Assembly: GCA_025980465.1 (NCBI GenBank)
Contig: JAICXJ010000009.1
Coordinates: 885 to 64,884 of the forward strand
Length of the DNA: 64,000 bases
Origin: Frankiales bacterium
GTDB taxonomy: Bacteria > Actinomycetota > Actinomycetes > JAFAQI01
Reading direction: 5' to 3'
Positions 46,185-64,000 of this stretch are shown piece after piece. Below the pieces are notes generated by a model. That model was not told where the DNA came from. It made no database searches and saw nothing but the letters and a program-made list of their open reading frames with translations. Made by a program: the position numbers and the translations under genes. Position 1 is the first letter of the stretch. Every line of letters starts with the position of its first letter.

Positions 46185-46919
46185 TCAGACCGGCTCCATC
46201 GCTGGTTCGGGTTGCGGGTGCGGCACGACGATGTCGGCCGCGACCGCACTCGCTGCCGGGTAGAGCACATACACGACGCCAACGGCAGCGGCTCCGCCGA
46301 TGAGCTGCATGAGGACGAACATCGGGACGGAACTCGGCGCGATCCCAGCGAAGGTGTTGGACAGCGTCCGGGAGACGTCGATCATGGGGTTGGCAAAGCT
46401 GGTCGACGATGACCACCAGTACGCCGCGGTGATGTACGCGCCGACGGCGAACGGTGCGCTAGCAGCGCGGTCGGTTCGGGCCAGGCCGAAGATCAGCACG
46501 ATCAGGCCGAAGGTAGCGAGCACCTCCGAGAGCCAGAGTCCTCCTGATGACCGGTGGTGGCTGGAGATCGTCAACGGCTTCAGGTGGAACATCAGGTTCG
46601 CCGCGATTGCCCCGACCACGCCGCCCGCGAACTGGGTCGGCAGGTAGACCGCGACTTGCCGGTTGGTGAGGCCACCAAACGCCCGGTCGGCAAGCGTCAC
46701 GACGGGATTGAAGTGGCCGCCTGACACCGGGCCGAACGCGAGGATCAGCGCGAGCAGCCCACAACCGGTGATGAGGGCGTTCTCGAGCAACTCGAGACCG
46801 ATGTCACCGGGGGAGAGGTGCTGGGCGGCGACGCCGCAGCCGATCACGACGGCGACCAGACCGGCAGAGCCGAGGAACTCGGCCAACGCCTGTCGCACCA
46901 GCAGCGGAGCCGACCGCAT
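46185..46919 (-). CDS. MIP/aquaporin channel, arsenic-associated AqpS type
   Basis: AEFLG, SGGHFNPVVT, SSTSFANPM; translationally coupled to the ArsR gene. Confidence 0.88.
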   Translation of the reverse strand: MRSAPLLVRQALAEFLGSAGLVAVVIGCGVAAQHLSPGDIGLELLENALITGCGLLALILAFGPVSGGHFNPVVTLADRAFGGLTNRQVAVYLPTQFAGGVVGAIAANLMFHLKPLTISSHHRSSGGLWLSEVLATFGLIVLIFGLARTDRAASAPFAVGAYITAAYWWSSSTSFANPMIDVSRTLSNTFAGIAPSSVPMFVLMQLIGGAAAVGVVYVLYPAASAVAADIVVPHPQPEPAMEPV

Positions 46920-47272
46920 CAGCAGCAGTTGGGGTCGATGACCCGGCACAGCGCGACCAGGGAGTTGCGGCGCGCGCGGTAGTACACATTCATCCCACGG
47001 CGCTCGCCGTCGCTGATGAGCCCGGCCTTCTTCAGGACGGACAGGTGGTGGCTGACCGTGGCTTCGGTGACGCCGAGAGCCGGAGCGAGGTCACAGGTGC
47101 AGATCTCGTCCTCGGCCAGCAGCAGCGAGACGAGCCGGACCCGCACCGGGTCGGCCAGGGCCTTCAGACGCAGGGCAACCTCAAGCGCGTCGTCCGGGGA
47201 CATCGGCGCTGCCGCGACCGGCGAGCAACAGATCGGACCGGACGTGTCGATCAGCGGAAGGGCCTTGGGCAC
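46919..47272 (-). CDS. ArsR-family regulator (Rv2640c-like)
   Basis: PKALP..CC, KALADPVR, CTCDL, TVSHHL, terminal CC. Confidence 0.9.
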   Translation of the reverse strand: MPKALPLIDTSGPICCSPVAAAPMSPDDALEVALRLKALADPVRVRLVSLLLAEDEICTCDLAPALGVTEATVSHHLSVLKKAGLISDGERRGMNVYYRARRNSLVALCRVIDPNCC

Positions 47273-47290
47273 TAGATCATCGTCGCAGGG

Positions 47291-47345
47291 ATTTGACATA
47301 TGTCAAATATATTGCCACGGTGGCATGAGTTAGACGAATATCTAA
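47291..47345. promoter_or_regulatory. Two ArsR-type operator palindromes in a divergent promoter
   Basis: Perfect ATTTGACATATGTCAAAT 47291-47308; TTAGACGAATATCTAA 47330-47345. Confidence 0.8.
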
Positions 47346-47362: not shown

Positions 47363-47815
47363 ATGTCCCGCGTCCAGCTCGCTCTCAACGTCGATGACCT
47401 CGATGAGGCGATCGGCTTCTACTCCAAGCTGTTCGGCACCGAGCCGGCGAAGGTCCGGCCCGGCTACGCGAACTTCGCGGTGACCAATCCGCCGCTCAAG
47501 CTGGTCCTGCTCGAGAACCCCGGCCGCGGCGGGAGTCTGAATCACCTCGGGGTGGAGGTCACGTCGACCGATGAGGTCAACGCCGAGCAGACCCGGCTAC
47601 GTGCGGTCGGTCTCGCCTCAGCCGATGAGCGGCAGACCACGTGTTGCTACGCGACGCAGGACAAGTTCTGGGTCGAGGGTTCCCCGAACGGCGAGCGCTG
47701 GGAGATCTACGCCGTCCTCGCCGACAGCGACACGTTCGGCGCCGAGAGCGGGGTTGTTGACTGCGCGTGCGGATCCGCGGCCGCAGCCACCGCGGAGGTG
47801 TGCTGCGCCGGCTGA
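47363..47815 (+). CDS. ArsI/CadI VOC-family metalloenzyme (C-As lyase-like)
   Basis: RVQLALNV, NHLG, CCYATQDKFWV, WEIY. Confidence 0.92.
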   Translation: MSRVQLALNVDDLDEAIGFYSKLFGTEPAKVRPGYANFAVTNPPLKLVLLENPGRGGSLNHLGVEVTSTDEVNAEQTRLRAVGLASADERQTTCCYATQDKFWVEGSPNGERWEIYAVLADSDTFGAESGVVDCACGSAAAATAEVCCAG

Positions 47816-48161
47816 CCCCGGCGGGGGGCAACGCCGACAGTCGGGCGAGCCTGCCACTAGCGACAATTCGGACACCGGCACCACGCGCCACACCGACATC
47901 CTGGGTCACAGTTGGGTCACAATTGTCCTTGACCTCACCCTTTCGTTGACTTAAGCGAGAGAGGATGGCGGCCGATCGGAGAAGTGAAGCCGGCAACCGC
48001 CGGTTTCATGGGACACGGTGATCCGAGTGACCCTCACCGACTCCCGGCGCGTTCGCGCGGCGGGGGCACGGAGAAAGACGGTCGCCTAGGTTGCTCGGGG
48101 AGTGAATGGCGAGACCGGCCCGACCGGATGGGGCGCAAGCCCTGATGGACGGGAGCACTCT

Positions 48162-48401
48162 ATGCGCACGGTCCTCAACAGGTCGGCGGGGCGCGCCTCG
48201 TTCATCCTTGCTATTGCCGGGATGGTGGGCAGCGTGGCGTTCCCCGCCGTACCAGCGCTGGCAAGAGCCGCGGGTCATCACTCGCAGCGCCCTGCCGTGA
48301 TCAAGCACCAGCCTGGTGCCCGGACGGGCAACACTGTCCGGCTCGGCCCTGCTGTTGCCTATGTTCGCGGCAAGGACGGCGTGGTTCGTCGGGTTCGCTG
48401 A
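48162..48401 (+). CDS. Small secreted basic protein, 79 aa, unknown function
   Basis: GGGAG RBS, signal-peptide-like N-terminus ending ALA, strong hairpin downstream. Confidence 0.55.
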   Translation: MRTVLNRSAGRASFILAIAGMVGSVAFPAVPALARAAGHHSQRPAVIKHQPGARTGNTVRLGPAVAYVRGKDGVVRRVR

Positions 48402-48430
48402 CGAGCTGACGCCGGCCGGCCCAGCACGAC

Positions 48431-48472
48431 AGAGGCGCCGCTCCATCCACGTGGCGGAGCGGCGCCTCTTCA
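48431..48472 (+). terminator. Probable intrinsic terminator
   Basis: Perfect 14-bp stem AGAGGCGCCGCTCC / GGAGCGGCGCCTCT with a weak T tail. Confidence 0.7.
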
Positions 48473-48520
48473 TGTCGTGTCCGAAGCGATTTGGTGCCAA
48501 TGGCACTAAGGTTCACCCTC

Positions 48521-48961
48521 GTGGAGGACGTCGACCGCTCAATTGTGCGGCTGCTGAGCGAGGACGGCCGGAGAAGTTTCACCGATCTGTCCCGTGACAC
48601 CGGGCTATCGGTCTCAGCCGTCCACCAGCGAGTACGGCGTCTGGAACAGCGCGGCGTCATCCGCGGCTACCGGGCAATCGCCGACCCGGTCGAGCTCGGC
48701 TTGCCGGTCACCGCATTCATCTCGATCAAGCCGATCGATCCCAGCGGCCCCGACGACGCGCCGGAACGGCTGTCCCATCTGCGCCAGATCGAGGCCTGTC
48801 ACAGCGTGGCGGGGGACGAGAACTACATCTTGAAAGTGCGCGTCGCGTCGCCTGCCGACCTCGAGTCGCTGCTGCAGGAGATCCGCGCCGCAGCGAGTGT
48901 GTCGACACGGACATCTGTCGTTTTGTCGACACCGTACGAGGATCGTCCGCCCGCGCTGTGA
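48521..48961 (+). CDS. Lrp/AsnC family regulator
   Basis: DGRRSFTDL, GLSVSAVHQRVRRLE, CHSVAGDENY. Confidence 0.94.
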   Translation: MEDVDRSIVRLLSEDGRRSFTDLSRDTGLSVSAVHQRVRRLEQRGVIRGYRAIADPVELGLPVTAFISIKPIDPSGPDDAPERLSHLRQIEACHSVAGDENYILKVRVASPADLESLLQEIRAAASVSTRTSVVLSTPYEDRPPAL

Positions 48962-49860
48962 CCAGTTCCGCCGGCCGGTTGCCGACGTTTCTCATCATCG
49001 GGGCGCAGAAGTCAGGCACGACGAGCCTGCACCGGCTGCTCCAGCAGCACCCCGAGGCGTTCCTGTGTGACCCCAAGGAACCCGACTTCTTCAGCTCGCC
49101 GCAGGCCTGGGGGAGAGGGGTGGGCTGGTACCGGTCGCTGTTCGCCGCGGCCGGCGACGCCGGCGCGATCGGTGAGGCCTCGACGACGTACTCGATGTAC
49201 CCCCACTACGCCGGCGTCGTGGACCGGGCGCTCTCGGTCCTGCCGGAACCAAAGATCGTCTATCTGACCCGCGAGCCGCTGGCCCGGATGCGGTCGGCGT
49301 ACCAACACGCGCTGAGTTGGGGGACCGAGACCCGACCGATCGGCACCGCCCTCTTAGAAGACCCGCGCTACCTGCTGACGAGTAGCTACGCCCTCCAGGC
49401 CGACCAGTGGCTCGCCCAGATCCCTCGCGAGCGGCTCCTGCTGCTCAGCCTCGAGGATCTCGGCGCCGATCCGGCCAGAGTGCTCGAGCGGGCGCTCCGC
49501 TTCCTCGGGATCGACGCCAGCTGGCAACCCGCTGCCGATCCGGCGCCACAGAACACCAGCGCCGGCAAGCGGGCTCCGCGGGCTTGGTGGCGGGGGGCGG
49601 GCGGCCTGATGCTGCGTCACGACAAGACCCACTGGGCGCCGCACTGGCTGGCGCGACTCGACGAGCGCCGCTCGCCGTTGGTCCGCCGCGAGATCTCCGG
49701 GGCCGAACTGGAGATTCCGGCGGCAATCGCCGACAGTCTGCGGCGCGCGTTGGCCCCGGACCTGGCCCGGCTAGGTCAGATCTGGACGGATTCGTTTCCG
49801 GGGTGGCTGGATAATCAGTCGGACCGTTCTCAGATATCTCTACCTAAAGTCGAGGGTTAG
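48958..49860 (+). CDS. PAPS-dependent sulfotransferase
   Basis: IIGAQKSGTTSL, KEPDFF, GEAST, REPLARMRS. Confidence 0.9.
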   Translation: MTSSAGRLPTFLIIGAQKSGTTSLHRLLQQHPEAFLCDPKEPDFFSSPQAWGRGVGWYRSLFAAAGDAGAIGEASTTYSMYPHYAGVVDRALSVLPEPKIVYLTREPLARMRSAYQHALSWGTETRPIGTALLEDPRYLLTSSYALQADQWLAQIPRERLLLLSLEDLGADPARVLERALRFLGIDASWQPAADPAPQNTSAGKRAPRAWWRGAGGLMLRHDKTHWAPHWLARLDERRSPLVRREISGAELEIPAAIADSLRRALAPDLARLGQIWTDSFPGWLDNQSDRSQISLPKVEG

Positions 49861-50092
49861 TGTCGTGTTGGCAAAGATCATCTCGCGCTTCGGTCTGAGC
49901 GGGGGGCAAGGCGCGTTGGACGGGACGACCGTGGTCGATCGTCAGGTTTGGTGCCGAATCCGGGCCGCAGCGCCCCGACAGCCTCGCGGGTTACCAACAG
50001 GGGCTGTGGAGGAGAATTCACTGAATTTGATCAAGATCGTCGATCACCGGCCTGACCTGCAGTTTCGGGCGTTTTCGCAGGTCAAGGCGGTG

Positions 50093-50123
50093 TTGACAGC
50101 CACGGGCCCTCGGGCGCTAGGTT
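50093..50123 (+). promoter_or_regulatory. Housekeeping-sigma promoter preceded by a TGACCTGC-N16-GCAGGTCA inverted repeat (50053-50084)
   Basis: TTGACA 50093-50098, 19-nt spacer, TAGGTT 50118-50123. Confidence 0.6.
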
Positions 50124-50129
50124 GCCTGC

Positions 50130-50412
50130 CGTCCACCACAGGGACGTTCGACCTTCACCGCGGTGACGATTCCGGGGATACCGGCTGGCCGGTCGGCGCG
50201 ATGCGTGCACCCGCATCCGTCGAGCTGGTGCCAGGTCCAGTTGGCCCCCGGCGCGTCATGAGCGACAAGGGCGAGCGTGGTGCGACTACTCGGGACAGGC
50301 CCGGGTGCCCAGTAGACAACGGCACTGAGGCGGCTGCCGGCCGCCACAGGGTCGGTCCGAAGGGCACCCGGGCCGGATCCGTTTCCGGCCCGAGGCGAAC
50401 CGTGCCGCCCGG
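50130..50412 (+). ncRNA. Candidate structured ncRNA or cis-regulatory leader upstream of lnt; family not recognised
   Basis: Nested helices 50172-50251, perfect 13-bp stem 50298-50310/50362-50374, alternative pairings, own promoter. Confidence 0.55.
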
Positions 50413-52056
50413 GTGGCGTTGGTAGCGTCGCCGGTTGTAAAGACCGACCGTTTGCGTCATCGCCTCCGACGGGACGCCGCGCGTGCCCTCGCTCGACCCG
50501 GCTGCGCCCTCGCCGCCGGCGTCGCCATCTGGGCCTCGTTCCCGCCGCTGTCGCTCTGGCCGCTGGCGATCTGCGGCGTCGCCGGGCTCACGCTGACCCT
50601 GCGGGGGAGCAGCAAGCGGGTCGCAGCCGGCCTGGGCATGCTGGCCGGTCTCGGGCTGTGGGTGCCACTCATGAGCTTCCTGCGGCTGTCCTTCGGGTTC
50701 GAGGCATGGGCCGCCGTCGCCGTGATCGAGTCGCTGTGGTTCCTCGGGCTCGCGCTCGCGCTGCGGGTCGTCCTGCGGGCCCGCTGGTGGCCACTGACCA
50801 GCTCCCTGTTGTGGGTGGGGCAGGAGTTTCTGCGGGACCGGTGGCCGTTCGGCGGCCTTCCGTGGGGGCGGCTGGCCTTCGGTCAAGCCGGCAGCCCGCT
50901 CGTGCACCTCGCCGCGGTTGCAGGAGCGCCGCTGGTGAGCTTCGCGGTCGCCCTTTCCGGCGCAGCTCTCGCCTGGGTCCTCCTCGCCCGCAGGCGGCGC
51001 CGCGGCGCCGCAGCGGCCATCGTGGGGCTCGCGGCGCTGCTCGCCGGCCCGCTGGCGATCCAGCTGCCGACTGCCGGCACCTCGCGACACGGCGCCCCAA
51101 GCTCAACGGTGGTCGCGGCCGTCCAGGGGAACGTGCCGCGGCTGGGGCTGGCGGAGTTCGCCCAGAAGCGAGCGGTCACCGAGTACCACCTGGCCGAAAC
51201 CCGGGTCCTCGCCGCCGCCGTCGCGGCCGGCCGGCTGCCCCGGCCGGACCTGGTGATCTGGCCCGAGAACGCCTCCGACCTCGACCCCACGACCGACCCG
51301 ATCGCCCGCGCCGTCATCGACAGTGCCGCCGCCGCGGTCCGGGTGCCGATCCTGGTCGGGGCGGTGCTGGACGGACCCGGGCCGAGCCATGTGCGCAACG
51401 CCGCGATCGTCTGGTCGCCCACCACCGGGCCGGGGCAGACCTACGTCAAGCGGCACCTGGTGCCGTTCGGGGAGTACCTGCCGTGGCGTAGCTTGCTGCT
51501 CAAGCTCAATGGCAAGTTCTCGTTGATTTCCAAGGACTTTGCCGCGGGCCATGCGGCTGGAACACTGCATATCGGGGCGATCACCGTCGCCGACACGATC
51601 TGCTTCGAGATCGCCGACGACACCGTCGTGCGGCAGGCGGTCACGGGCGGCGGCCGGTTGCTCGTCGTACAGACCAACAACGCTGACTACGAGCGGAAGG
51701 GCGACAGCGGGAACGGGGGAGAAACCGCCCAGCAACTCGACATCGCCCGGCTTCGGGCGGTTGAGAGCGGCCGGGCGGTCGTGGTCGCGGCCACCAGCGG
51801 CGTGAGCGCGATGATTTCCCCCGACGGCAAGGTGCTGGCCCGGACCGGGGTGTTCACCCCGGCGATACTCGACCTTCGGTTGCCGCTGCGCGACCCGCTC
51901 ACCATCGCCGACCGGGTCGGAGCCTGGCCGGAATGGGTCCTCAGCGCCGCGGGGCTGCTCGGGCTGGGAATCGTCGTCGCAGCAGGCCGCAGGAAACGCC
52001 CGCCGGTCACCCTCAAGCCGGAGTCGAGGGTGGAGCCGTCAGCAGTCGCCAGTTAG
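50413..52056 (+). CDS. lnt: Apolipoprotein N-acyltransferase
   Basis: PFGGLPW, QGN, WPEN, YVKRHLVPFGEY, ICFE, QTNNA, RAVE; start approximate. Confidence 0.94.
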   Translation: MALVASPVVKTDRLRHRLRRDAARALARPGCALAAGVAIWASFPPLSLWPLAICGVAGLTLTLRGSSKRVAAGLGMLAGLGLWVPLMSFLRLSFGFEAWAAVAVIESLWFLGLALALRVVLRARWWPLTSSLLWVGQEFLRDRWPFGGLPWGRLAFGQAGSPLVHLAAVAGAPLVSFAVALSGAALAWVLLARRRRRGAAAAIVGLAALLAGPLAIQLPTAGTSRHGAPSSTVVAAVQGNVPRLGLAEFAQKRAVTEYHLAETRVLAAAVAAGRLPRPDLVIWPENASDLDPTTDPIARAVIDSAAAAVRVPILVGAVLDGPGPSHVRNAAIVWSPTTGPGQTYVKRHLVPFGEYLPWRSLLLKLNGKFSLISKDFAAGHAAGTLHIGAITVADTICFEIADDTVVRQAVTGGGRLLVVQTNNADYERKGDSGNGGETAQQLDIARLRAVESGRAVVVAATSGVSAMISPDGKVLARTGVFTPAILDLRLPLRDPLTIADRVGAWPEWVLSAAGLLGLGIVVAAGRRKRPPVTLKPESRVEPSAVAS

Positions 52057-52403
52057 GCCGACTTCCGCGACTTCGGCGCGGGGTGCAGCTCGGCCAGCCG
52101 CTCGTTGAGGACGTCCTCGAGGTCATCGATAGACCGCCGCTCGAGCAGCATGTCCCAGTGCGTCCTGGCCTGCTTGCCGACCTTCGCCGCCGGCGCCTCG
52201 ACGTCACGCTGCACGGCGGGAGCGCCACAGGTCCGGCATTCCCAGCTCGCCGGCACCTCGGCGTCGAGCGCCATCGGCATCCGGGTCTCGTGGCCCTCCG
52301 GGCAGTCGAAGATGACCTCACGCCGCGGCGCAAGATCGGTATTACGGTCGGTCTCGTAACTTGTGGTTCCGAGGCGGCTGCCCCGTAGGACGCGCTCACC
52401 CAT
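52053..52403 (-). CDS. rbpA: RNA polymerase-binding protein RbpA
   Basis: RVLRGSRLG, CPEGH, WECRTCG, RTHWDMLLERRS. Confidence 0.97.
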   Translation of the reverse strand: MGERVLRGSRLGTTSYETDRNTDLAPRREVIFDCPEGHETRMPMALDAEVPASWECRTCGAPAVQRDVEAPAAKVGKQARTHWDMLLERRSIDDLEDVLNERLAELHPAPKSRKSA

Positions 52404-52438
52404 GTCCGCCTCCTGGCAGTTGCGGCGTTCGTTGGCAT

Positions 52439-52466
52439 AACGCCGTTCGTTAGTACGTCGATTCCC
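52439..52466 (-). promoter_or_regulatory. SigR/SigH-type promoter for rbpA
   Basis: Minus strand GGGAAT-N18-CGTT; rbpA is an established SigR target in Streptomyces. Confidence 0.7.
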
Positions 52467-52625
52467 GGATCCGCGGTTCATACCCACCGGCCGGCGACCT
52501 GCTGTCCGGTAGGTGTAGGTGTAGCCCACCTACCTGAACAGACGCTGGGACGCCGGGGATGGTTGACCGGTTCACATCACGGTTGCGCAACGCGCCGGTT
52601 CCATCGGTTCTCAGCATTCTAGTCT

Positions 52626-52653
52626 GACGCCGATAATGGACATTATGTCAGGT
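52626..52653. other. dif: dif site (XerCD chromosome dimer resolution)
   Basis: GACGCCGATAA-TGGACA-TTATGTCAGGT, an 11-6-11 layout matching dif (E. coli GGTGCGCATAA-TGTATA-TTATGTTAAAT); intergenic; gene orientation converges here. Confidence 0.88.
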
Positions 52654-52878
52654 CTACCATATCGGGCCGAAGGTGAAGGGATCCCCCGCAGACGGGCCAG
52701 GATTTCGACCCAGGGTCGCTCCGGGCGGCACCCCCGGCCACTCCACAGTCTCAGGTCGCGCAGAACTCATTCACAGTTCGCCGCGATTCGCTATACGGAA
52801 TTCGTCCGGTCGTGCCGACACTGGATGTACCGGCGCGATCCGGCGTCGGAAGGAACGCACAGAAAGAGGGGCACAACG

Positions 52879-53085
52879 ATGTGCCTGCACCACCCGACTT
52901 GCCCGTCGGCCGATGCCGCTGACCGCGACGCCGCCCGCGTGGTCGCGAGTCACCCCGAGCAGGGCTGGAGCCTGCTCTGCAACGGCGTTGTCAGTTTCGA
53001 CGACGCGGGGGACCTACTTCCGGATGGAAGCGTGATCCCGCCGCAGCAGCGGCAGCCGCACGACCACCACCTCCCCGCCGCGTAG
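52879..53085 (+). CDS. DUF5999-like small protein
   Basis: MCxHxPxCP...HPEQGWSLLCNGVVSFDDAGDLLPDG; GAGGGG RBS. Confidence 0.85.
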   Translation: MCLHHPTCPSADAADRDAARVVASHPEQGWSLLCNGVVSFDDAGDLLPDGSVIPPQQRQPHDHHLPAA

Positions 53086-53091
53086 GGCTCG

Positions 53092-55935
<2,844 letters not shown>

Positions 55936-56039
55936 TGGAGCCTCCTCGAGTCCGTCCCAAACCGGGCGGGACGGTGCGGGTCGATCCGCATCGCGGACCT
56001 GACCAGTCGGACGATCCGCCCTTGGGCGGATCGAAGGCT

Positions 56040-56250
56040 CCCCCTCTGTCTACGAACCTGAGAGTGTCCCCCGCCGTAGCGGACCCACTGCGGGTCCGCC
56101 GGGCGAGCTTGCCCCGTCGGTGAGGCGTCGAACGACGCCTGCTCTCCAGAGTGCCCTGCCCGCGCGGTCCGTCTGCCTGAGAGGTTCCGGGGAGGTTGCT
56201 CCTTCGGCGCCCCGGACTGGCGTGCCGGGGACTCTCCCACGCGGGGTGAT
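56040..56250 (-). promoter_or_regulatory. Tandem glycine riboswitch
   Basis: Minus strand GGGAGAG..CGCCGAAGGAGCAA..CTCTCAGGC..GGAC, then CTCTGGAGAG..CACCGACGGGGCAA..CTCTCAGGT..GACAGAG; upstream of gcvP. Confidence 0.95.
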
Positions 56251-56341
56251 CAGGCTACTTGACGGTATCAGTGACGGCCGCCAGATCGGGCCGTGGAACG
56301 CCGGAAACGCCGCGCTGAGCGCCTCGTAGCGCCGCGATCGG

Positions 56342-56920
56342 CTAGGCGGGGGTACGACGCTTGCGGCGGGCCGCCAATTCGTCTGCAGCGTCCGCTGAGA
56401 GGCCCGTACCGGGTTCGGCGCGCTCGGCCGGGAGCTCGGCAAGGCTGCCCTCGACCTCGCTCACCACCCGGCCGACGGCGATCCCGAAGACCCCCTGGCC
56501 GCCCTGCACCAGGTCGACGACCTCGTCGGGAGAGGTGCAGGCGTAGACCGTGGTGCCGTCGCTCATCAGCGTGACATCGGTCAGGTCCGCTTCGCCGGCC
56601 TCCCGAAGATGAGTGACGGCGAGCCGGATGTTCTGCAACGAGACGCCGGTGTCGAGCAGCCGCTTGACGACCTTGAGCAACAGGATGTCGCGGAAGGAGT
56701 ACAGCCGCTGGGTCCCGGAGCCCGACGCCGGACGCACCGAGGGCACTACGAGGCCGGTGCGGGCCCAGTAGTCGAGTTGGCGATAGGTGATCCCGGCGAC
56801 TGTGCACGCGGTGGGTCCTCGGTAGCCGACCGGGTCGCCGCCGGCCTGTTCCATGCCGAACAGCGCAGGCTGCGTTGCGCGCGTGCCGGGGTCTTTGCTA
56901 CCTGACTCGTCGCCCGTCAC
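56342..56920 (-). CDS. MerR-family regulator (Rv1830-like)
   Basis: GYRGPTAC..GITYRQLDYWART, GSGTQRLYSF, EVVDLVQGGQGVFGI. Confidence 0.92.
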   Translation of the reverse strand: MTGDESGSKDPGTRATQPALFGMEQAGGDPVGYRGPTACTVAGITYRQLDYWARTGLVVPSVRPASGSGTQRLYSFRDILLLKVVKRLLDTGVSLQNIRLAVTHLREAGEADLTDVTLMSDGTTVYACTSPDEVVDLVQGGQGVFGIAVGRVVSEVEGSLAELPAERAEPGTGLSADAADELAARRKRRTPA

Positions 56921-57063
56921 GTGCCCTCCGAACCGCGCCGATCCCGCCGCCACCGAGGTAAACGCCATCGATGGAATTCCGTGGCTGACGGTAGGAGCCT
57001 GGCCGGTAGGCGTCAATGACAGATTCAGGCGCGTCCTAGATCTCGATGTCTAGTCGAGACTTT

Positions 57064-57537
57064 TTATGAGTCGCCCGTCTCAAAGTCCTCAGGAGATATC
57101 TGGTCGAGGAACTCCCGGAAGCGTTCGACCTCGGTCTCCTGCTCGTCGGCGATCGCGATCCCAGCGGTGTCGAGAACGGACTCCTCGGCGTAAATGACCG
57201 TCCCCACCCGGATCGCGAGCGCGATCGCGTCTGACGGCCGCGCCGACACGGCGGTGCCGTCCTGAAACTTTAGATCCGCGTAGTAGACGCCATCGCGCAG
57301 ATCGGTGATCAGGACTGCGTCGAGCTGGGCGCCGAGCGCCTCGAGGACGTCCTTGAGCAGGTCGTGGGTCAGTGGGCGGGCGGGCACGATCCCCTGCTGC
57401 GCGAAGGCGATCGCGGTGGCCTCGACCGCGCCGATCCAGATCGGCAGGTAGCGGTCGCCGGCTGACTCTTTGAGCAGCACGATCGGCTGGTTGGACGGAA
57501 GCTCGACTCGGACGCCGACGACGGTGAGTTCGTTCAC
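57064..57537 (-). CDS. Bifunctional nuclease family protein (DUF151)
   Basis: RYLPIWIG, RPLTHDL, ARPSDAIA. Confidence 0.92.
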   Translation of the reverse strand: MNELTVVGVRVELPSNQPIVLLKESAGDRYLPIWIGAVEATAIAFAQQGIVPARPLTHDLLKDVLEALGAQLDAVLITDLRDGVYYADLKFQDGTAVSARPSDAIALAIRVGTVIYAEESVLDTAGIAIADEQETEVERFREFLDQISPEDFETGDS

Positions 57538-57614
57538 ACCCTCACTCCGCTCCGACTCGTGCTGGCTGTGCTGCGAACCTACACCGCGATCCGGCAGCGG
57601 AGGCTCGCGATCAC

Positions 57615-58352
57615 TCAGCCGCCGAGTTGGGGTCGAAGCCCTGCCCGCACCAAGGTGGCGTGCAGCCGCACTGACAGGCTGGCCAGCTCGCGCGCGACCT
57701 CGTCGGCGCGGCCCCGGGCCTCGGGATTGCGCTGGCGAACCAGCGGCGCCACGACCTGTTCCACCAACCCCAGCTCGCGCTCGGCGGTCGTCCGAAACGA
57801 TCGCAGGTGACGAGGCTCGAGCCCGAAGCGGCTCATCTGCGCCACGGTCTTGGCGATGACCAGCGCGTCACCGTCGTAGTGACCCCCCGGCCGCGGGCTG
57901 ATCAGGCCGAACGATTCGATCTGGTTCAACTGCTCGGCCTCGATGCCGGCTGCCTGAACGAGCTCATCCCGCGACAGCCGGAGCTCGGAGGGCTCCGGCA
58001 GGAAGTCGTCCGCGTGTGGCAGGCCATCAGCCTCCTCCCCCGCACTGACCGGCACCTGCGGTCCGCTCTGGCCCGCCACCGCCGGCTGCAGACCGCGGTC
58101 GATCGCTTCAAGGTGGGACTTGATCACCCGCAGCGGCAGGTAGTTGTCGCGCTGTGCGGCGAGCACGTAACGGAGCCGGCCGACGTCATCGCGGCTGAAC
58201 TTGCGGTAGCCCGAGGACGTGCGAGCCGGCTCCACCAGACCTTCCGCCTCGAGGAACCGGATCTTCGAGATCGTCACGTCCGGAAATTCGCCGCGCAGCT
58301 GCCCGAGGACCTCGCCGATGCTCATGAAGGCGTGGGAGGCGCTGGTGCTCAT
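57615..58352 (-). CDS. MerR-family regulator (FtsR/Rv1828-like)
   Basis: MSIGEVL..FPDVTISKIRFLE, SGYRKF, QRDNYLPL, GLEPRHLR. Confidence 0.92.
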   Translation of the reverse strand: MSTSASHAFMSIGEVLGQLRGEFPDVTISKIRFLEAEGLVEPARTSSGYRKFSRDDVGRLRYVLAAQRDNYLPLRVIKSHLEAIDRGLQPAVAGQSGPQVPVSAGEEADGLPHADDFLPEPSELRLSRDELVQAAGIEAEQLNQIESFGLISPRPGGHYDGDALVIAKTVAQMSRFGLEPRHLRSFRTTAERELGLVEQVVAPLVRQRNPEARGRADEVARELASLSVRLHATLVRAGLRPQLGG

Positions 58353-58861
58353 CACGCCCCAGCCGGGTAGCTGGTGAAGAACAGCAGCCGGAACTTCCCC
58401 ACCTGCACCTCGTCGCCGTTACCGAGCGGCGCCGACTCGATTCGCTCCCGGTTGAGGTACGTGCCGTTGAGGCTGCCGGTGTCGGCCACGACATAGCCGT
58501 CCGCGGTCCGAGTAAATGTTGCGTGGTGACGCGACACGGTGACGTCGTCGAGGAAGATGTCGCTGTCGGGGTGCCGGCCGGCGGTCGTCACCTCCTGGTC
58601 GAGCAGGAATCGGCTGCCGGCGTTGGGTCCTCGCTGCACGACGAGAAGCGCGAAACCGGCCGGAAGCGACTCGCCGAGCAGTTCACCGGCCAGGTCGTCA
58701 TGTTCGTCGACCTCGACGCCGGCAAGCGAGAGCGTGCTGGTCTGGTCCGCAGACACGGCCGCGGCGCCCCCGGCGCCGGAAAGCGCGGTCCCGCACCGCG
58801 AGCAGAACCTGGAGTCGCCCGGATTCTGGTTTCCGCACTCGGGACAGAAGACGCTGGGCAT
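58352..58861 (-). CDS. FHA domain protein (GarA/OdhI-like) with N-terminal Zn ribbon
   Basis: CPECG..FCSRCG; GRHPDSDIFLDDVTVSRHH, SLNGTY. Confidence 0.92.
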   Translation of the reverse strand: MPSVFCPECGNQNPGDSRFCSRCGTALSGAGGAAAVSADQTSTLSLAGVEVDEHDDLAGELLGESLPAGFALLVVQRGPNAGSRFLLDQEVTTAGRHPDSDIFLDDVTVSRHHATFTRTADGYVVADTGSLNGTYLNRERIESAPLGNGDEVQVGKFRLLFFTSYPAGA

Positions 58862-59047
58862 CGGGTGGTTCGCCTACTTCCCGGTGGCTCGTTCCGTGGT
58901 CCGGGTGGACTTCGGTGGCCTAGCGCCTGCTAGATGAAACCTCAACCACAGGTCTAGGGCAGGCACACGCTAGAGCCACGGCCGACACTGGTCAACCCGA
59001 CAGGTAAGCGGGCTGGCGCCGAGCCGTGAAAGCGGCCGGGGCCTGGT

Positions 59048-59434
59048 TCAGGAGCCGGCGTCGATGAGCGCCTGGTACGCCGCGGCATCGAGCAAGCCAT
59101 CCGCAGCACCCTGCTCGATCGGCTTGATCGCGACGATCCACCCCGAGCCGTAGGCGTCGCTGTTCACCAGGTCCGGCCGGGTCTCGAGCTCCTCGTTGCG
59201 GGCGACCACCTCGCCGGCGAACGGGGCGTAGATCTCCGACACGCTCTTCGTGGACTCGACCTCGCCGAGCACCGACCCGGCCGCGACGGTCGCGCCGATC
59301 TCGGGCAGCGCCACGAAGACGATGTCGCCGAGCGCCTCCTGAGCGAAGTCCGTGATGCCGACTCGCACCGCACCGTCGGCCTCGGTGCGCGCCCACTCGT
59401 GCTCGGTCGTGTAGCTCAGATCCTCCGGTACCAC
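59048..59434 (-). CDS. gcvH: Glycine cleavage H protein
   Basis: HEW, GITDFAQEALGD, lipoyl motif VESTKS. Confidence 0.96.
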   Translation of the reverse strand: MVPEDLSYTTEHEWARTEADGAVRVGITDFAQEALGDIVFVALPEIGATVAAGSVLGEVESTKSVSEIYAPFAGEVVARNEELETRPDLVNSDAYGSGWIVAIKPIEQGAADGLLDAAAYQALIDAGS

Positions 59435-59483
59435 GTCGCTCGCTCCCGCTCGTCGACTGCTTCGGCCCACTGCTGGCGGGAGC

Positions 59484-60059
59484 CTAACGTGCGAGCACGC
59501 GGCGTTCCTCGACCAGGTACAGCCAGCCCGACCACAGGTAGAGCGCTGCGCCCCAGCCGGTGAAGGCCCAGGCGAGCGGCCGCATCACGTGCCCGAGCGT
59601 GTTGTCACCCACGGAGAGCAGCAGACCAGGGAACGCGTAGAGCAGATTGAGCGTGGCCGCCTTGCCGAGGAAGTGCACCGGCGGCGGCCCGTGACCTGCG
59701 CGCCGAAGAGCCACCAGCCCGCCGGAGAGGACCAGATCTCGGCCGACCAGGACCGCGGCGAGCCAAATCGGAATGATCCCCCGCGCCGTCAGCGCGGCGA
59801 GCGTCGCCAGGATGTAGAGCCGGTCGGCCGCCGGGTCGAGCAGCTCGCCGACCCGGCTAGTCAGGTTGAACCGTCGGGCGATCTTGCCGTCCGCGTAGTC
59901 GGAGAATCCGGCGAGCATCAGCACGATCACCGCCCAGCCGTCCGCATGCCGCCCGAGCGCGAGCCAGAGGAAGACTGGCACCCCCACCAGACGCAGTGCC
60001 GACAGCAGGTTCGGGACCGTCCACACCCGGTCGCTCGCCGGGGCCGGTCCCGTGCTCAT
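59484..60059 (-). CDS. CDP-alcohol phosphatidyltransferase
   Basis: TVPNLLSALR, DYADGKIARR...GELLDPAAD. Confidence 0.93.
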   Translation of the reverse strand: MSTGPAPASDRVWTVPNLLSALRLVGVPVFLWLALGRHADGWAVIVLMLAGFSDYADGKIARRFNLTSRVGELLDPAADRLYILATLAALTARGIIPIWLAAVLVGRDLVLSGGLVALRRAGHGPPPVHFLGKAATLNLLYAFPGLLLSVGDNTLGHVMRPLAWAFTGWGAALYLWSGWLYLVEERRVLAR

Positions 60060-60137
60060 CGAGCGGAGTCTAGAGAGGCGCGATCACATCCTTGACGACG
60101 TGGCGCGAGCGGCGCGCCCACTAGACTTCGCGGCCAG

Positions 60138-60211
<74 letters not shown>

Positions 60212-60265
60212 CGCACTGGCGGGGCTGCCGCTGTGAGCGGGCTAGCGCATATCGCGTCACCGGGC

Positions 60266-61615
60266 TCACCGGCGTCCCTTCGCCGCCTTCCGCGACTCCC
60301 TCGGCTTCACCACGAGCTGGATCGGCGTACCAGCGAAGCCGTACTGCTCGCGCAACCGCCGTTCGATGAAGCGCCGGTACGACGCCTCGAGCGGCCCGGT
60401 GGTGAAGAGCACGAAGCGAGGCGGCGCCACGCCTGGCTGGGTCGCGAACAGCACCTTCGGCTGCTTGCCACCGCGCACCGGCGGCGGCGTCGCCGCCACC
60501 AGCGCGCTGAGGAACGCGTTGAGCTCGCTGGTGGGGATTCGGGTCTCCCACGCCTCGAGAGCGGCCACGAGCGCCGGCGCGATCCGGCGCAGCCCGCGGC
60601 CGGTCCGTGCCGAGAGGTTGAGGCGAGCCGCCCAGCTGACCCGACCGAGTTCTCGCTCGATCTCTCGGTCGAGTCGCTCCCGCCGATCCTCATCGACCAG
60701 GTCCCACTTGTTCAGCAGCAGGACGAGTGCCCGACCCGCGTCGACGACCATGTCGGCGATCCGCAGGTCCTGATCGGTGATCGGCTCCGATGCATCCAGT
60801 AGCAGCAAGACGACCTCGGCCGCGTCGATCGCCGCGGAAGTTCGCAGGCTCGAGTAGTACTCGGCCCCCTTCGCCTCGTGCACCCTTCGCCGCAGGCCCG
60901 CGGTGTCGACAAACCGCCATGTCGTCTCATCGATCGTCACCATCGAGTCCACCGGGTCTCGCGTGGTGCCCGCCACTGCGTCGACTAGGGCGCGCTCAGC
61001 ACCCGACAGGGCGTTGAGCAGGCTGGACTTGCCGACATTGGGCTTCCCGACCAGGGCGACCCGGCGTGGCCCGACCGGCGCCGCACCCGGTGCCGGTGAC
61101 GCCGGCAGCGCCGCGACAATCGCGTCGAGCAGCTCGCCACTCCCCCGGCCGTGCAGCGCGCTGACCGCCAGCGGCTCGCCGACCCCGAGGCCCCACAACG
61201 CCGCCACCTCCGGTTCACTTGTCGACGAGTCGACTTTGTTGGCGGCGAGCACGACTGCCGGCGCCCGGCGTTGGAGCACCCGGGCGACCGCGGCATCGGC
61301 GTCGGTGATCCCGACCGTGGCGTCGACGACGAGGACGACGACGTCGGCAGCTTCAGCAGCAACCTCCGCCCCGGCGGCGATTCGAGCGGCCATGCCTTTG
61401 GCGTCCGGGAGCCAGCCGCCGGTATCCACGACGGTGAAGGTCCGTCCCGCCCACTCCGCCTCGTAGCTAACTCGGTCACGCGTGACCCCGGGGACGTCTT
61501 CGACGACCGCTTCGCGGCGGCCGAGCACTCGGTTCACCAGCGTCGACTTACCGACATTCGGACGGCCGATGACCGCCACGACCGGAATGGCCGTGGCCGA
61601 GCCTGGCTGGGTCAC
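60266..61615 (-). CDS. der: Ribosome biogenesis GTPase Der
   Basis: Two G domains ([16 protein letters not shown]; DTGG, DTAG; NKVD, NKWD) and a KH-like tail. Confidence 0.97.
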
Positions 61616-62295
61616 GCTGCCCGGCCGGACTCGCCGCCGGTTGCCCGAAGGTGCTCGAGCAACTGGATACGAATCTGCTCGGCGGCGTCCGCGATCGTCG
61701 CCCGGGTGCGAGGATCGCCGCTGACCTCGAGCGAGAACGCCGGCCCGAACACCACCTGGATCGGCGCGCGGAAGCGCGGCAGCGCCTTGCCCTTGGGCAG
61801 CGCCGCCGCCGTTCCGGTGCAGACGACCGGCACGATCGGGCAGCGCCCGCCAAGTGCCAAGTAGCCGATCCCGTGCTGGATGATGGCCAGCTCGCCGGTC
61901 CCGCGGGTCCCCTCCGGGAAGACGCCGAGGACGCCGCCGCCGCGAAGCACGGCAAGCGCTCGATGCAGGTTCGTCCGGTCAGGGGTGCCGCGAATGATCG
62001 GGATCTGGCGGGCAAAGTTCAGGATCGGCCTGAATCCGGTGTCGTAGAGCTCGCTTTTGACCAAGAAGGCGGAGGGCCGCGACAGCATGATCATCACGAT
62101 CGGCCCGTCGAGGAAGCCGGAGTGGTTTCCGGCGAGGAGCACCGGCCCCGACGACGGTAGATGTTCCAATCCAACAAGTCTCAACCTGAACACGAGCCTC
62201 AACAGGAGTTGAGCAGCTCGTCGTGTGATCGCGAGCGGGATTGACTCTTTCGCCGGATCATCGACTCGCCGTAGCCTGCTCGTGGGCCGGGTCAT
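61612..62295 (-). CDS. Lysophospholipid acyltransferase (PlsC-like)
   Basis: NHSGFLD, VFPEGTR. Confidence 0.92.
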
Positions 62296-62963
62296 GAGAC
62301 AACCTCCGCGACCTGGCCCACAATCACCGCGATGACCTCGTCGGCCGACAGTGAGCTGGTGTCGACGACCACCGCGTCCGGGGCCTGGGTCAGCGGGGAC
62401 GCCGCCCGTGATGAGTCGGCTTGATCGCGGCGGATCAGCTCCGCCTCGGTGCCGGCAACCGCCTCCGCGCCCTGGCCGTCCTGGCTGGCACGTCGCCGCG
62501 CCCTGGTTGCCGGGTCGGCCGTGAGATAGACCTTCACCGGCGCATCAGGCGCCACTGTGGTGCCGATGTCCCGCCCCTCGACCACGATGCCGCCGGCGCC
62601 GATCAGGTCACGCTGGCGCGCAACCATCACTAGGCGCACTCCCGGCACTGCACTGACCGCGCTCACCGCGGCAGTCACCTTGCGGGTACGGACCTGATCG
62701 GTGACATCGGTCCCGTCGATCGCGATCCGGGGCGCTGCCGGGTCCGGCGTGATCGAGAGCTCGGCAGCCTCCGCCAGCGCCGTCAACGCTGCACCGTCGG
62801 CCAACCCCACGCCGCGCTCCAAGGCCAGCCACGTGACCGATCGGTACATCGCACCGGTGTCGAGGTAGCGCAACCCGAGCGCTACCGCGGTCCCTCGCGC
62901 GACGGTGGACTTTCCCGACCCGGACGGCCCGTCGATGGCGACGACGAGATTGCGCCGCTGCAC
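62292..62963 (-). CDS. cmk: Cytidylate kinase
   Basis: AIDGPSGSGKST, LDTGAMYR, EGRDIG. Confidence 0.96.
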   Translation of the reverse strand: MQRRNLVVAIDGPSGSGKSTVARGTAVALGLRYLDTGAMYRSVTWLALERGVGLADGAALTALAEAAELSITPDPAAPRIAIDGTDVTDQVRTRKVTAAVSAVSAVPGVRLVMVARQRDLIGAGGIVVEGRDIGTTVAPDAPVKVYLTADPATRARRRASQDGQGAEAVAGTEAELIRRDQADSSRAASPLTQAPDAVVVDTSSLSADEVIAVIVGQVAEVVS

Positions 62964-63094
62964 CGGACCTCCTCGCGGTTTCACTGGCCGGGCAGAGTCT
63001 AGGCCTCCGGCGCTCGGGACCCTCCCCACGCTGCGCGAACCGGTCCGGCCTGAGCGTGAATGAGGCGCTCAGAGCCGACTTGTCGATATGACGA

Positions 63095-64000
63095 TCAGTC
63101 GCCACTCGGCTCGCTTGCGCTGGCGCGCCAGCCCCGTGCCTCCAGCCCCGCCTCGAGCCTGCCACCCATGCCCGGCGCTACGTCGAGCTCGACGATGCCC
63201 AGCGGCTGCCCCGGCGAGTGGTCCACCCGGATGTCCTCGACATTGACACCGTCGGCCGCGGCATCCGCCAGCAGCCGGGCCAGCCGGCCCGGCTCATCGG
63301 GAACCACCACCGAGACGGTCGCCCAACGGACCGCCGCCTGCCCGTGCTTGCCGGCGAGCAGGCCTCGGCCGGCTCGACCCCGCTCAACGAGGCTGTGGAC
63401 CAGCTCACCGGCCGCGTCACCACTCGCGAGGGCGCGCTGCAAGCTCGCGAGCGGCGCGAGTGCTGCCTCGAGGGCACTCGCCACCGCGGCCGGGTTGGCC
63501 GTGACGATCTCCGCCCACAACGCCGGATCGCTGTCGGCGATCCGCGAGGTGTCCCGCAGGCCGGTGCCGGCAAGCGCCACGTCACCGCGATCGAGACCGA
63601 GCAACGATCCTGCAAGCGCCGAGGCGATCAGCTGGGGGGCATGCGACAGCCTGGCCAGCACGAGGTCATGGTCGGCGGCAGCCATCTGGCGCACCGCTGC
63701 CCCACAGCCCTCGGCGAGCGCAACGACCGCTGCAACGGCCGGCGGCGACGATCGCGAGGTGGGGCACACGACCCAAGGGCGCTCCCGGAACAAGTCGGCC
63801 GAGGCGTGATGCGGCCCGGACCGCTCTCGGCCGGCGATCGGGTGGCTACCGACAAACCCGATGAAGTTCGGTTGTAAGATCTCTACCTCGACTTGAGGTC
63901 GATGCTGAACACTACTGACATGGGTCACAGTGGCAGCAACACCAGAACGAACTAGCTCATCGACGACCGGGGCGACCTGGACCGGGGGCACGGCAACAAC
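63095..64000 (-). CDS. tyrA: Prephenate dehydrogenase with ACT domain; 5' end outside the window
   Basis: HPIAGRERSG, DLF, HD..A..SHAPQ, GLRDTSRIA, ACT domain DEPGRL. Confidence 0.92.
   Translation of the reverse strand, partial: VVAVPPVQVAPVVDELVRSGVAATVTHVSSVQHRPQVEVEILQPNFIGFVGSHPIAGRERSGPHHASADLFRERPWVVCPTSRSSPPAVAAVVALAEGCGAAVRQMAAADHDLVLARLSHAPQLIASALAGSLLGLDRGDVALAGTGLRDTSRIADSDPALWAEIVTANPAAVASALEAALAPLASLQRALASGDAAGELVHSLVERGRAGRGLLAGKHGQAAVRWATVSVVVPDEPGRLARLLADAAADGVNVEDIRVDHSPGQPLGIVELDVAPGMGGRLEAGLEARGWRASASEPSGD

Follow-up and report, generated by a model that had tools for sequence, protein, structure and literature searches.

FtsR-type boxes cluster near ftsR and a dif-like site in a Frankiales bacterium

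In the genome of a Frankiales bacterium, nearly all of the best FtsR-type boxes outside the ftsZ promoter were found beside the dif-like XerCD site and the gene of FtsR itself, a known activator of ftsZ, and some of these boxes are conserved within open reading frames (ORFs) across orders. They lie in and next to a stretch of 64,000 nucleotides (nt) of GenBank assembly GCA_025980465.1 (contig JAICXJ010000009.1, here C16), which is called the window below and comprises bases 885-64884 of this 90,413-base contig; positions above 64,000 are contig C16 coordinates continued beyond the window end. The whole genome (coded G000; its relatives are coded G004, G009, G018, G025 and so on) is 95% complete and consists of 3.45 Mb (3,446,940 bases) in 106 contigs, with 69% G+C. 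An earlier note on this DNA had pointed to CTCNAC-N5-GTNGAG palindromes around dif, partly embedded in ORFs, as a candidate terminus-binding system of a local MerR protein.

To our knowledge, actinobacteria lack the terminus and division systems of other phyla (Min, Noc/SlmA, and MatP), which raises the question of how they couple cell division to the completion of chromosome replication. If the boxes serve the terminus, they would link termination with division in bacteria without Min, Noc/SlmA, and MatP. Even on an ordinary reading, they would disclose two conserved regulatory links that we did not find in the papers cited here, namely FtsR feedback on the odhI-ftsR operon and an FtsR box at the promoter of a McdR homologue.

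The palindrome matches the core of the FtsR box

Judged from sequence, CTCNAC-N5-GTNGAG is the core of the published box of FtsR (Cg1631/Rv1828/SCO1383). In the ftsZ promoter of Corynebacterium glutamicum, the FtsR box forms an inverted repeat of 25 bp, which is imperfect and has GGTTGAGGGTA at its end, and this box and a similar one in the Mycobacterium tuberculosis ftsZ promoter both terminate in GGTTGAGG (PMC6683498). Taken as palindromes, both have the core CTCAAC-N5-GTTGAG, which bears out the likeness to the Corynebacterium FtsR repeat that the earlier note had suggested. The consensus of the boxes in relatives, TAACCCTCAACCTCAGGTTGAGGGTTA, also matches the published half-sites by eye, and GTTGAG-type half-sites stand 11 bp apart in both the published and the present boxes. 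Of 30 relatives whose ftsZ loci were inspected, most carry the same element 50-200 nt 5' of this gene, as does the genome under study, where the box at C9:52226-52252, about 200 nt before the FtsZ N-terminus, is the top match of both matrices described below (42.1 and 30.3 bits). A second, weaker box of 14.4 bits lies in this promoter at C9:52094-52120, about 130 nt 5' of the 30.3-bit main box.

Purified FtsR homologues bind the ftsZ-promoter element in C. glutamicum (PMC6683498) and S. coelicolor (Streptomyces DNA affinity purification sequencing (DAP-seq) preprint), and SCO1383 was bound 5' of ftsZ in 16 of 17 actinomycetes (same preprint). An FtsR orthologue of the same regulator family by equivalog score is encoded in the middle of the array (Table 1), and the C-terminal half of its product matches the Rv1828 structure 5ydc (E 4.2e-26). 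The genome thus holds an FtsR orthologue, inverted repeats of about 25 bp with the published half-sites, and a box in its own ftsZ promoter. We consider it very probable that the boxes near the terminus are bound by this FtsR.

Another binder of like specificity, be it the MerR protein related to McdR, the product of the nuclease-domain gene in the ftsR operon, or some other protein, appears improbable, even though two MerR genes and a gene with a nucleic-acid-binding domain lie inside the array. McdR/ResR (Rv1830) is likewise a MerR-family division regulator with a palindromic operator, and its homologue is encoded two genes away. However, its motif AATnACAnnnnTGTnATT (PMC9040748) has, by eye, other half-sites and a 4-nt centre in place of the 5-nt centre of the boxes, with mapped sites at whiB2 and a few other promoters, and the boxes match the very element that the purified FtsR homologues bind. 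Of the local MerR proteins that the earlier note had offered as binders, FtsR is therefore the one expected from the sequence, and the Rv1830-like protein is not, since its published motif differs.

Eight boxes fall within about 1% of the genome

With up to two mismatches, the literal pattern was found 52 times in the window, compared with 44.7 ± 6.8 times in shuffles, 16 of 100 of which reached 52. This is chance level, as an explanation by chance, base composition, or protein-coding constraint would have it, and the literal pattern was therefore dropped in favour of matrices. When at most one mismatch was allowed, there were 158 matches in the 3,446,940 bases (0.046 per kb), and eight of them lay in window 47934-63897, where 0.73 would be expected. 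Two of these eight, at 59527 and 61002, were put down to chance, being GC-rich, below 8 bits, and not kept as motifs in relatives.

Because the motif had been chosen after the sites were viewed, a test was built that is independent of those sites. The first matrix (27 bp) was made from the ftsZ-promoter boxes of 15 relatives, with the genome under study left out, and provides the clean test. In a whole-genome scan, this matrix ranked the ftsZ promoter of the genome first (42 bits), followed by two matches on C16. Among the 31 distinct non-ftsZ matches above 8 bits, seven were on C16 compared with 0.81 expected (binomial p 1.3e-5), and all seven fall in window 49-85.5 kb. A composition artefact was excluded, as C16 had 0.43 matches on average and three at most when 100 column-permuted matrices were used.

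The second matrix is palindromic and was built from 36 boxes of relatives. At 18 bits or more, it detected ten distinct boxes genome-wide: the ftsZ promoter box, one on contig C11, and eight on C16, which span 34.7 kb or about 1% of the genome (window 49.8 kb to 84.5 kb). The next score on C16 is 11.9 bits, and other 40-kb stretches of the genome hold at most one box of at least 18 bits. No further box of at least 12 bits was found on C16 with this matrix, including window 1-49 kb, in line with the remark in the earlier note that the first 47 kb hold nothing as good. The flanks of the eight boxes have a mean identity of 26%, i.e., that of random sequences, which rules out a mobile repeat.

All seven sequences listed in the earlier note are present where it placed them, and five of them (at 49838, 57042, 58941, 62180, and 63881) are members of the motif with 18.8-27.2 bits. 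The remaining two drop out. The sequence at 47934-47950 scores 6.7 bits with the palindromic matrix and is negative with the ftsZ matrix, and the N4-spaced palindrome at 62198-62213, which abuts the real box at 62175, scores -2.2 bits by the N5 model. A degenerate array proposed for gcvP also finds no support, the best position there reaching 8.7 bits. Conversely, three boxes had been overlooked, one at 52007 and two beyond the window (68550 and 84504).

Outside C16 and the ftsZ promoter, the sole strong box (C11:190594-190620, 22.9 bits) is located inside an SDR oxidoreductase gene. A box of 16.8 bits lies inside a PBP1A-family gene (C96:3754-3780); the top FtsR peak of C. glutamicum adjoins a penicillin-binding-protein gene (PMC6683498). 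Taken together, the next-best dispersed boxes (in the C11 SDR gene, a C33 fumarase/aspartase gene, and the C96 PBP1A gene, and past a C37 amidase gene) give no coherent picture.

Table 1 Boxes, promoter-like sequences, genes, and other features on contig C16
Feature	Position	Strand	Remarks
FtsR-type box	49833-49859		27.2 bits, second only to the ftsZ promoter; in the 10 final codons of the sulfotransferase ORF
FtsR-type box	52007-52033		20.6 bits; in the 17 final codons of lnt, where the 3' ends of this gene and rbpA converge
FtsR-type box	57037-57063		18.8 bits; 5' of the McdR-like gene
FtsR-type box	58936-58962		22.3 bits; directly 3' of the -10 element of the odhI-ftsR promoter
FtsR-type box	62175-62201		19.9 bits; codons 32-41 of the plsC-like gene
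FtsR-type box	63876-63902		20.2 bits; codons 107-116 of tyrA
FtsR-type box beyond the window	68550-68576 (L030:4550-4576)		24.2 bits; in the parA-like gene, over LNPQLELEGI
FtsR-type box beyond the window	84504-84530 (L031:504-530)		18.2 bits; where orf223 and the HAD-hydrolase gene converge, in the gap of 30 nt that separates them
Promoter-like TTGACC-N18-TAGCGT of the odhI-ftsR operon	58967-58995	-	
Promoter-like TTGACG-N18-TACCGT of the McdR-like gene	56988-57016	-	in 17 loci, mostly conserved on the 3' side of the box (by eye)
Sulfotransferase gene	48958-49860	+	
lnt	50413-52056	+	
rbpA	52053-52529	-	
dif-like XerCD site	52626-52653	+	between rbpA and the DUF5999 gene
DUF5999 gene	52636-53085	+	
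gcvP	53092-55935	-	
Second MerR-family gene, Rv1830/McdR-like	56342-57016	-	Pfam MerR_1; likely true start near 56920, 3' of the predicted promoter
Bifunctional-nuclease-domain gene (Rv1829-like)	57064-57537	-	last in the odhI-ftsR operon; Pfam BFN_dom, 138.9 bits
ftsR, MerR-family regulator	57615-58355	-	NCBIfam NF050798 FtsR equivalog, 292 bits (cut-off 150)
odhI/garA-like FHA gene	58352-58861	-	first in the odhI-ftsR operon; N-terminal zinc ribbon
Genes from the odhI/garA-like gene to the window end			all on the minus strand: gcvH, clsA/pgsA, der, plsC-like gene, cmk, tyrA
Contig C16 past the window, first part			aroH, rluB, scpB, scpA, two unknown genes, parA-like gene, xerD, ald, nudix gene
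Contig C16 past the window, rest			pyrG, GT4 gene, murJ-like gene, mctB, steA, recN, nadK, tlyA, HAD gene

Selection on boxes inside genes

Five of the eight boxes lie within coding sequence. When the codons of 39 ORFs (37.4 kb) were shuffled synonymously 300 times, a mean of 0.06 and a maximum of one box of at least 18 bits arose, as against these five; coding needs hence do not explain the intragenic boxes, and the match to a codon-preserving shuffle that the earlier note had named as a refutation did not occur. The same shuffles yielded 1.07 boxes of at least 12 bits in these ORFs, which is above the genome average. In the ten-codon box stretches of the sulfotransferase, tyrA, and parA-like genes, the G+C content at third codon positions (GC3) is 0.40 compared with 0.79-0.85 gene-wide (0.85 for the sulfotransferase gene), and it is not lowered at box 52007 in lnt.

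The box in the parA-like gene uses the codons CCT CAA CTA GAG CTT in a gene with a GC3 of 0.82 and was found in G000, G004, G018, G009, and G025 (22-32 bits), i.e., in at least three families, with CCT, CAA, CTA/CTG, and CTT codons. In G020, G021, and G028, the parA-like genes encode similar residues through GC-ending codons, and the box is missing there; in G028, a box is located just 5' of the gene instead. The intragenic boxes are maintained by rare codons, in the parA-like gene by AT-ending ones. The tyrA box recurs at the aligned place in G004 (19.0 bits), G025 (15.3 bits), and, weakly, G009 (11.1 bits), although the surrounding protein stretch is poorly conserved. Both the parA-like and the tyrA box are also present in other orders. 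The plsC-like box was found in G000 only and is missing at the aligned place in G004 and G009.

The clustering is far above chance, and the intragenic boxes are under selection at the DNA level. An origin by chance, base composition, or coding constraint is extremely improbable. It could draw on the shuffles above and on the parA-like box, which overlies the conserved protein motif NPxLxLEG, but it is contradicted by the permuted matrices, the synonymous shuffles, and the genome-wide ranks, as well as by the rare codons and by the relatives that have the same residues and no box.

Promoter boxes and orphan boxes

The eight boxes comprise two promoter boxes (core boxes) and six orphans. Four orphans are in ORFs (the sulfotransferase tail, the 5' part of the plsC-like gene, tyrA, and the parA-like gene), and two are at converging gene ends (lnt/rbpA and orf223/HAD). 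The core boxes flank the odhI-ftsR-nuclease operon on either side and recur throughout the class: in 20 ftsR loci, which were oriented on the gene strand and one of which is cut by a contig end, a box lies 5' of odhI in 18 and a box lies between the nuclease-domain and McdR-like genes in 17. This bears out the earlier note, which had placed one box 5' of the Rv1830-like gene and another 5' of the FHA/FtsR operon.

Both core boxes have a clear promoter geometry. A TTGACC-N17-18-TA(G/C)CGT sequence stands directly 5' of the odhI box in 11 loci of the own family (by eye), so that the box covers the predicted transcription start, an operator position. At the McdR-like gene, the box is immediately followed by GAC(A/G)CGC and, about 20 nt on, by TTGAC(G/C)-N17-18-CTA(C/A)CGT, and box 57037 is centred about 70 nt 5' of the predicted transcript start. 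On both strands of the whole of C16, TTGAC-N17-20-TANNNT occurs three times, two of these being the core-box promoters, and it was not found within 200 nt of any of the seven other boxes tested. A scan of 47.5-64 kb for sigma-70 promoters and terminators was uninformative, with one promoter-like site (overlapping dif) versus 0.8 expected and four terminators versus 4.9 expected.

The core boxes probably have a regulatory function, with feedback on the odhI-ftsR operon and activation of the McdR-like gene as the predicted effects. FtsR on the box over the odhI-ftsR transcription start would exert negative autoregulation, and the box near -70 of the McdR-like gene would be in an activator-like position, comparable to that of the FtsR box at -73 in the promoter that C. 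glutamicum has for ftsZ (PMC6683498).

The GAC(A/G)CGC element (window 57028-57036, minus strand) is at the same place in 16 other ftsR loci and matches the WhiB2-type cGACACGc element, through which WhiB2 is described to activate mycobacterial mcdR; a conserved region_1 of undescribed function lies 5' of that element. Region_1 may be an FtsR box, which is a guess, as its sequence is not in the paper text. An FtsR box beside a WhiB2-type element would join FtsR, McdR, and WhiB2 in one circuit.

Box 49833 precedes the next ORF, taken from its longest start, by 19 nt and lnt by about 580 nt, and boxes 5' of lnt occur at comparable places in G009, G011, and G025. As for box 52007, a box of 15.4 bits lies immediately beyond the rbpA stop in G009. 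At the 3' end of the HAD gene, G018 has a weak match only (8.7 bits, first matrix). A weaker box at 74279 lies just 5' of a gene, and a box at the GT4 gene tail before pyrG scores 11.9 bits in G000 and 20.3 bits in G009. Boxes at the rluB/scpB junction were found in G009 and G025.

The terminus region and the array in relatives

The cumulative GC skew turns at 50-56 kb of the window, i.e., at the dif-like site, which we take to be dif on the basis of its consensus, and the same core with 0-2 changes is found beside or near rbpA in G018, G020, G021, G025, and G028. The skew turn and the recurrence of the core near rbpA in five relatives mark the region as the replication terminus. The distance from dif to ftsR is 5-10 kb in G000, G018, G020, G021, and G028; this distance and the proximity of dif to rbpA are shared by relatives of several orders. 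In G018, G020, G023, G025, and G028, ftsZ and ftsR are on one contig, 40-500 kb apart, which would place the division gene cluster fairly near the terminus in these five genomes as well.

To follow the boxes in relatives, 37-200 kb around ftsR were scanned in eight of them; none of the conclusions depends on G026, an unpublished genome. At 12 bits or more, 13 boxes were found in 77 kb of G009, nine in 160 kb of G018 (eight of them in 31 kb around ftsR and dif), and ten in 200 kb of G025. Sequence-only model searches of other genomes scored 150 of 364-1163 candidates each (1351 in G025), and a missing match among these is weak evidence. The complete 5.23-Mb genome G025 was searched with a model without G025 sites, and 150 of 1351 candidates were scored. 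Of the 12 distinct matches, six fall in 114 kb that contain both dif and ftsR, and another one is the ftsZ promoter. Among the 150 candidates scored in each genome, three of four top distinct matches in G018, three of three in G020, and four of five in G028 belong to the ftsZ promoter or to the ftsR-dif region, the other two being elsewhere. The same searches in G019, G021, G022, G023, and G024 returned the ftsZ promoter only, or one core box, or nothing. In more distant relatives, just the two core boxes were detected. By this comparison, the two core boxes are old, and the array is an elaboration in the own family and the G025 lineage.

The relation of the array to dif varies. In G000, two boxes lie 0.6-2.8 kb to the left of dif and six lie 4-32 kb to the right, so that the cluster around dif described in the earlier note stands as a cluster (eight of the ten best boxes are near dif), not as one centred on dif. 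In G009 and G018, boxes occur on both sides of the rbpA/dif position. In G025, about 91 kb (C1:4393600-4485000) that include dif (two changes) separate rbpA from the DUF5999 gene, although these two genes adjoin each other in other genomes. This stretch, which may be an insertion or a rearrangement at the terminus, holds no box of at least 12 bits and one weak match of 8.6 bits at 4433760 (first matrix). Because the G025 boxes are apart from dif, the boxes follow their gene blocks, being terminus-proximal but not dif-centred.

Possible roles of the array

The boxes might form a purely local regulon, all being ordinary FtsR operators. The two core boxes would then control the odhI-ftsR operon and the McdR-like gene, and the others would drive or block internal, antisense, or adjacent promoters of syntenic cell-cycle genes (the lnt operon, cmk-plsC-der, parA-like-scpAB, and pyrG); the cluster would reflect that a scarce regulator most readily reaches targets close to the gene encoding it. 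This is possible and little less likely than a role beyond promoters, as it accords with the geometry of the two core boxes, the position of boxes 49833 and 74279 shortly 5' of genes, the strong box before pyrG in G009, and the box 5' of the parA-like gene in G028. The presence of scpA, scpB, the parA-like gene, xerD, steA, and recN in the region, the report that, among the factors, SCO1383 had the strongest association with the KEGG cell-cycle pathway (Streptomyces DAP-seq preprint), the lineage-restricted distribution, and the absence of terminus peaks in C. glutamicum also speak for it. On the other hand, the box in tyrA is situated 333 nt inside this gene, with some 860 nt to go to the next one, converging gene ends enclose boxes 52007 and 84504, and the seven non-core boxes have no TTGAC-N17-20-TANNNT within 200 nt. 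Moreover, eight of the ten best boxes in 1% of the genome go far beyond the one to three adjacent targets that local regulators usually have.

We favour a role of the orphan boxes beyond promoters, which we regard as quite possible though tentative. It is suggested by the orphan positions, the upkeep of boxes against codon bias, their conservation, the restriction to 35 kb at the terminus, the precedent of ZapT described below, and the C. glutamicum FtsR peaks 4, 7, and 8, which are situated inside genes or at 3' ends and were not accompanied by changes in expression (PMC6683498, Table 1). In such a role, the six orphan boxes would hold FtsR dimers on terminus-proximal DNA, mainly not driving promoters, and the 35-kb segment would be the main FtsR-binding domain of the chromosome apart from the ftsZ promoter. 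Like ZapT and MatP, this domain might label the terminus for the division machinery; alternatively, it might serve to titrate free FtsR, and with it the transcription of ftsZ, against the copy number of the DNA that is replicated last. That FtsR does the job of ZapT or MatP here, the array tethering the terminus to the division site or setting free FtsR by the replication state of the terminus, is rather doubtful.

Several points weigh against the role beyond promoters. The array is limited to some lineages, with G020, G021, G019, G022, G023, and G024 having at most core boxes in searches that scored 150 candidates each, and it is not centred on dif. The boxes of G025 stay with the lnt-rbpA and ftsR-parA-like blocks, and dif is in the box-poor 91 kb. 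Boxes 49833 and 74279, just 5' of genes, could be ordinary operators. As actinobacterial promoters often have no -35 element, the TTGAC-TANNNT scan is unable to rule out weak internal promoters at the orphan boxes. The p-value of 9.6e-12 obtained with the second matrix is inflated, since three or four of the own boxes have orthologues among the sequences on which this matrix was trained. No ZapA (PF05164) was found in the genome, ZauP not having been searched for, and no match to MatP (PF06303) was found in this 95%-complete genome, for which an E. coli control was positive. Finally, none of the nine strongest C. glutamicum FtsR peaks from chromatin affinity purification sequencing (ChAP-seq) is near ftsR (PMC6683498, Table 1), so that a terminus role cannot be general for FtsR.

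Comparison with known systems

The published FtsR work describes dispersed targets, such as the nine C. glutamicum peaks, in contrast to the clustered array here. In the papers cited here, we found no description of an array around ftsR and dif, of conserved intragenic boxes, or of boxes in the promoters of odhI-ftsR and mcdR. Literature searches likewise turned up no terminus array of FtsR boxes, although weaker peaks that bear on this may be listed in the supplements to PMC6683498 and the DAP-seq preprint.

The closest parallel is ZapT of Caulobacter crescentus, a member of the MerR family with a link to division and with ten peaks in chromatin immunoprecipitation sequencing, mostly intragenic and biased to the terminus (PMC7188993); the parallel drawn in the earlier note fits this paper. 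FtsR is also a MerR-family protein whose predicted boxes are near the terminus and in several cases intragenic. ZapT has no known motif, its sites extend over 1.3-2.2 Mb, its gene is in the ihfA operon, and it acts via ZapA and ZauP (PMC7188993). The boxes differ in having a sharp motif and a span of 35 kb, and FtsR differs in being a proven transcription activator as well. Its gene is in the odhI-ftsR operon, following odhI and preceding the nuclease-domain gene, and not with ihfA. By analogy, the system may nevertheless work like ZapT despite lacking the features that define ZapT.

Similar to the boxes, matS sites are palindromes clustered around dif, many of them in genes, and with MatP they link the terminus to the divisome; a ZapB-MatP link is named in PMC7188993. 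However, matS sites cover about one-fifth of the chromosome in a domain of several hundred kb, compared with about 1% and 34.7 kb here, MatP is not a MerR protein, and none was found in this genome. The boxes are not a MatP/matS system.

The ParB/parS system near oriC of actinobacteria also has several palindrome copies within tens of kb at a chromosome landmark, some of them in ORFs. It differs in being proximal to the origin and not to the terminus, and in protein family and motif. ParB spreads from parS; we know of no such spreading of FtsR.

Gene order and other observations

The gene order around ftsR is conserved across the class. Around the McdR-like gene, it is what we take to be the Rv1826-1832 order, and this order is kept in relatives. 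The stretch is present in soil or other metagenome sequencing runs; no RNA data were among the 20 runs listed, all of which are soil or other metagenomes.

The FHA protein encoded at 58352-58861 scores 179.8 bits with the OdhI model, under the cut-off of 200. This model aligns from residue 61 only, and a zinc-ribbon match covers residues 5-27.

The most AT-rich 28-mer of the window (47286-47313) contains the palindrome TTTGACATATGTCAAA, which sits between a small minus-strand ORF (46919-47299) and an arsI/cadI-type gene (47363-47815) and which we take to resemble an ArsR/SmtB-type operator.

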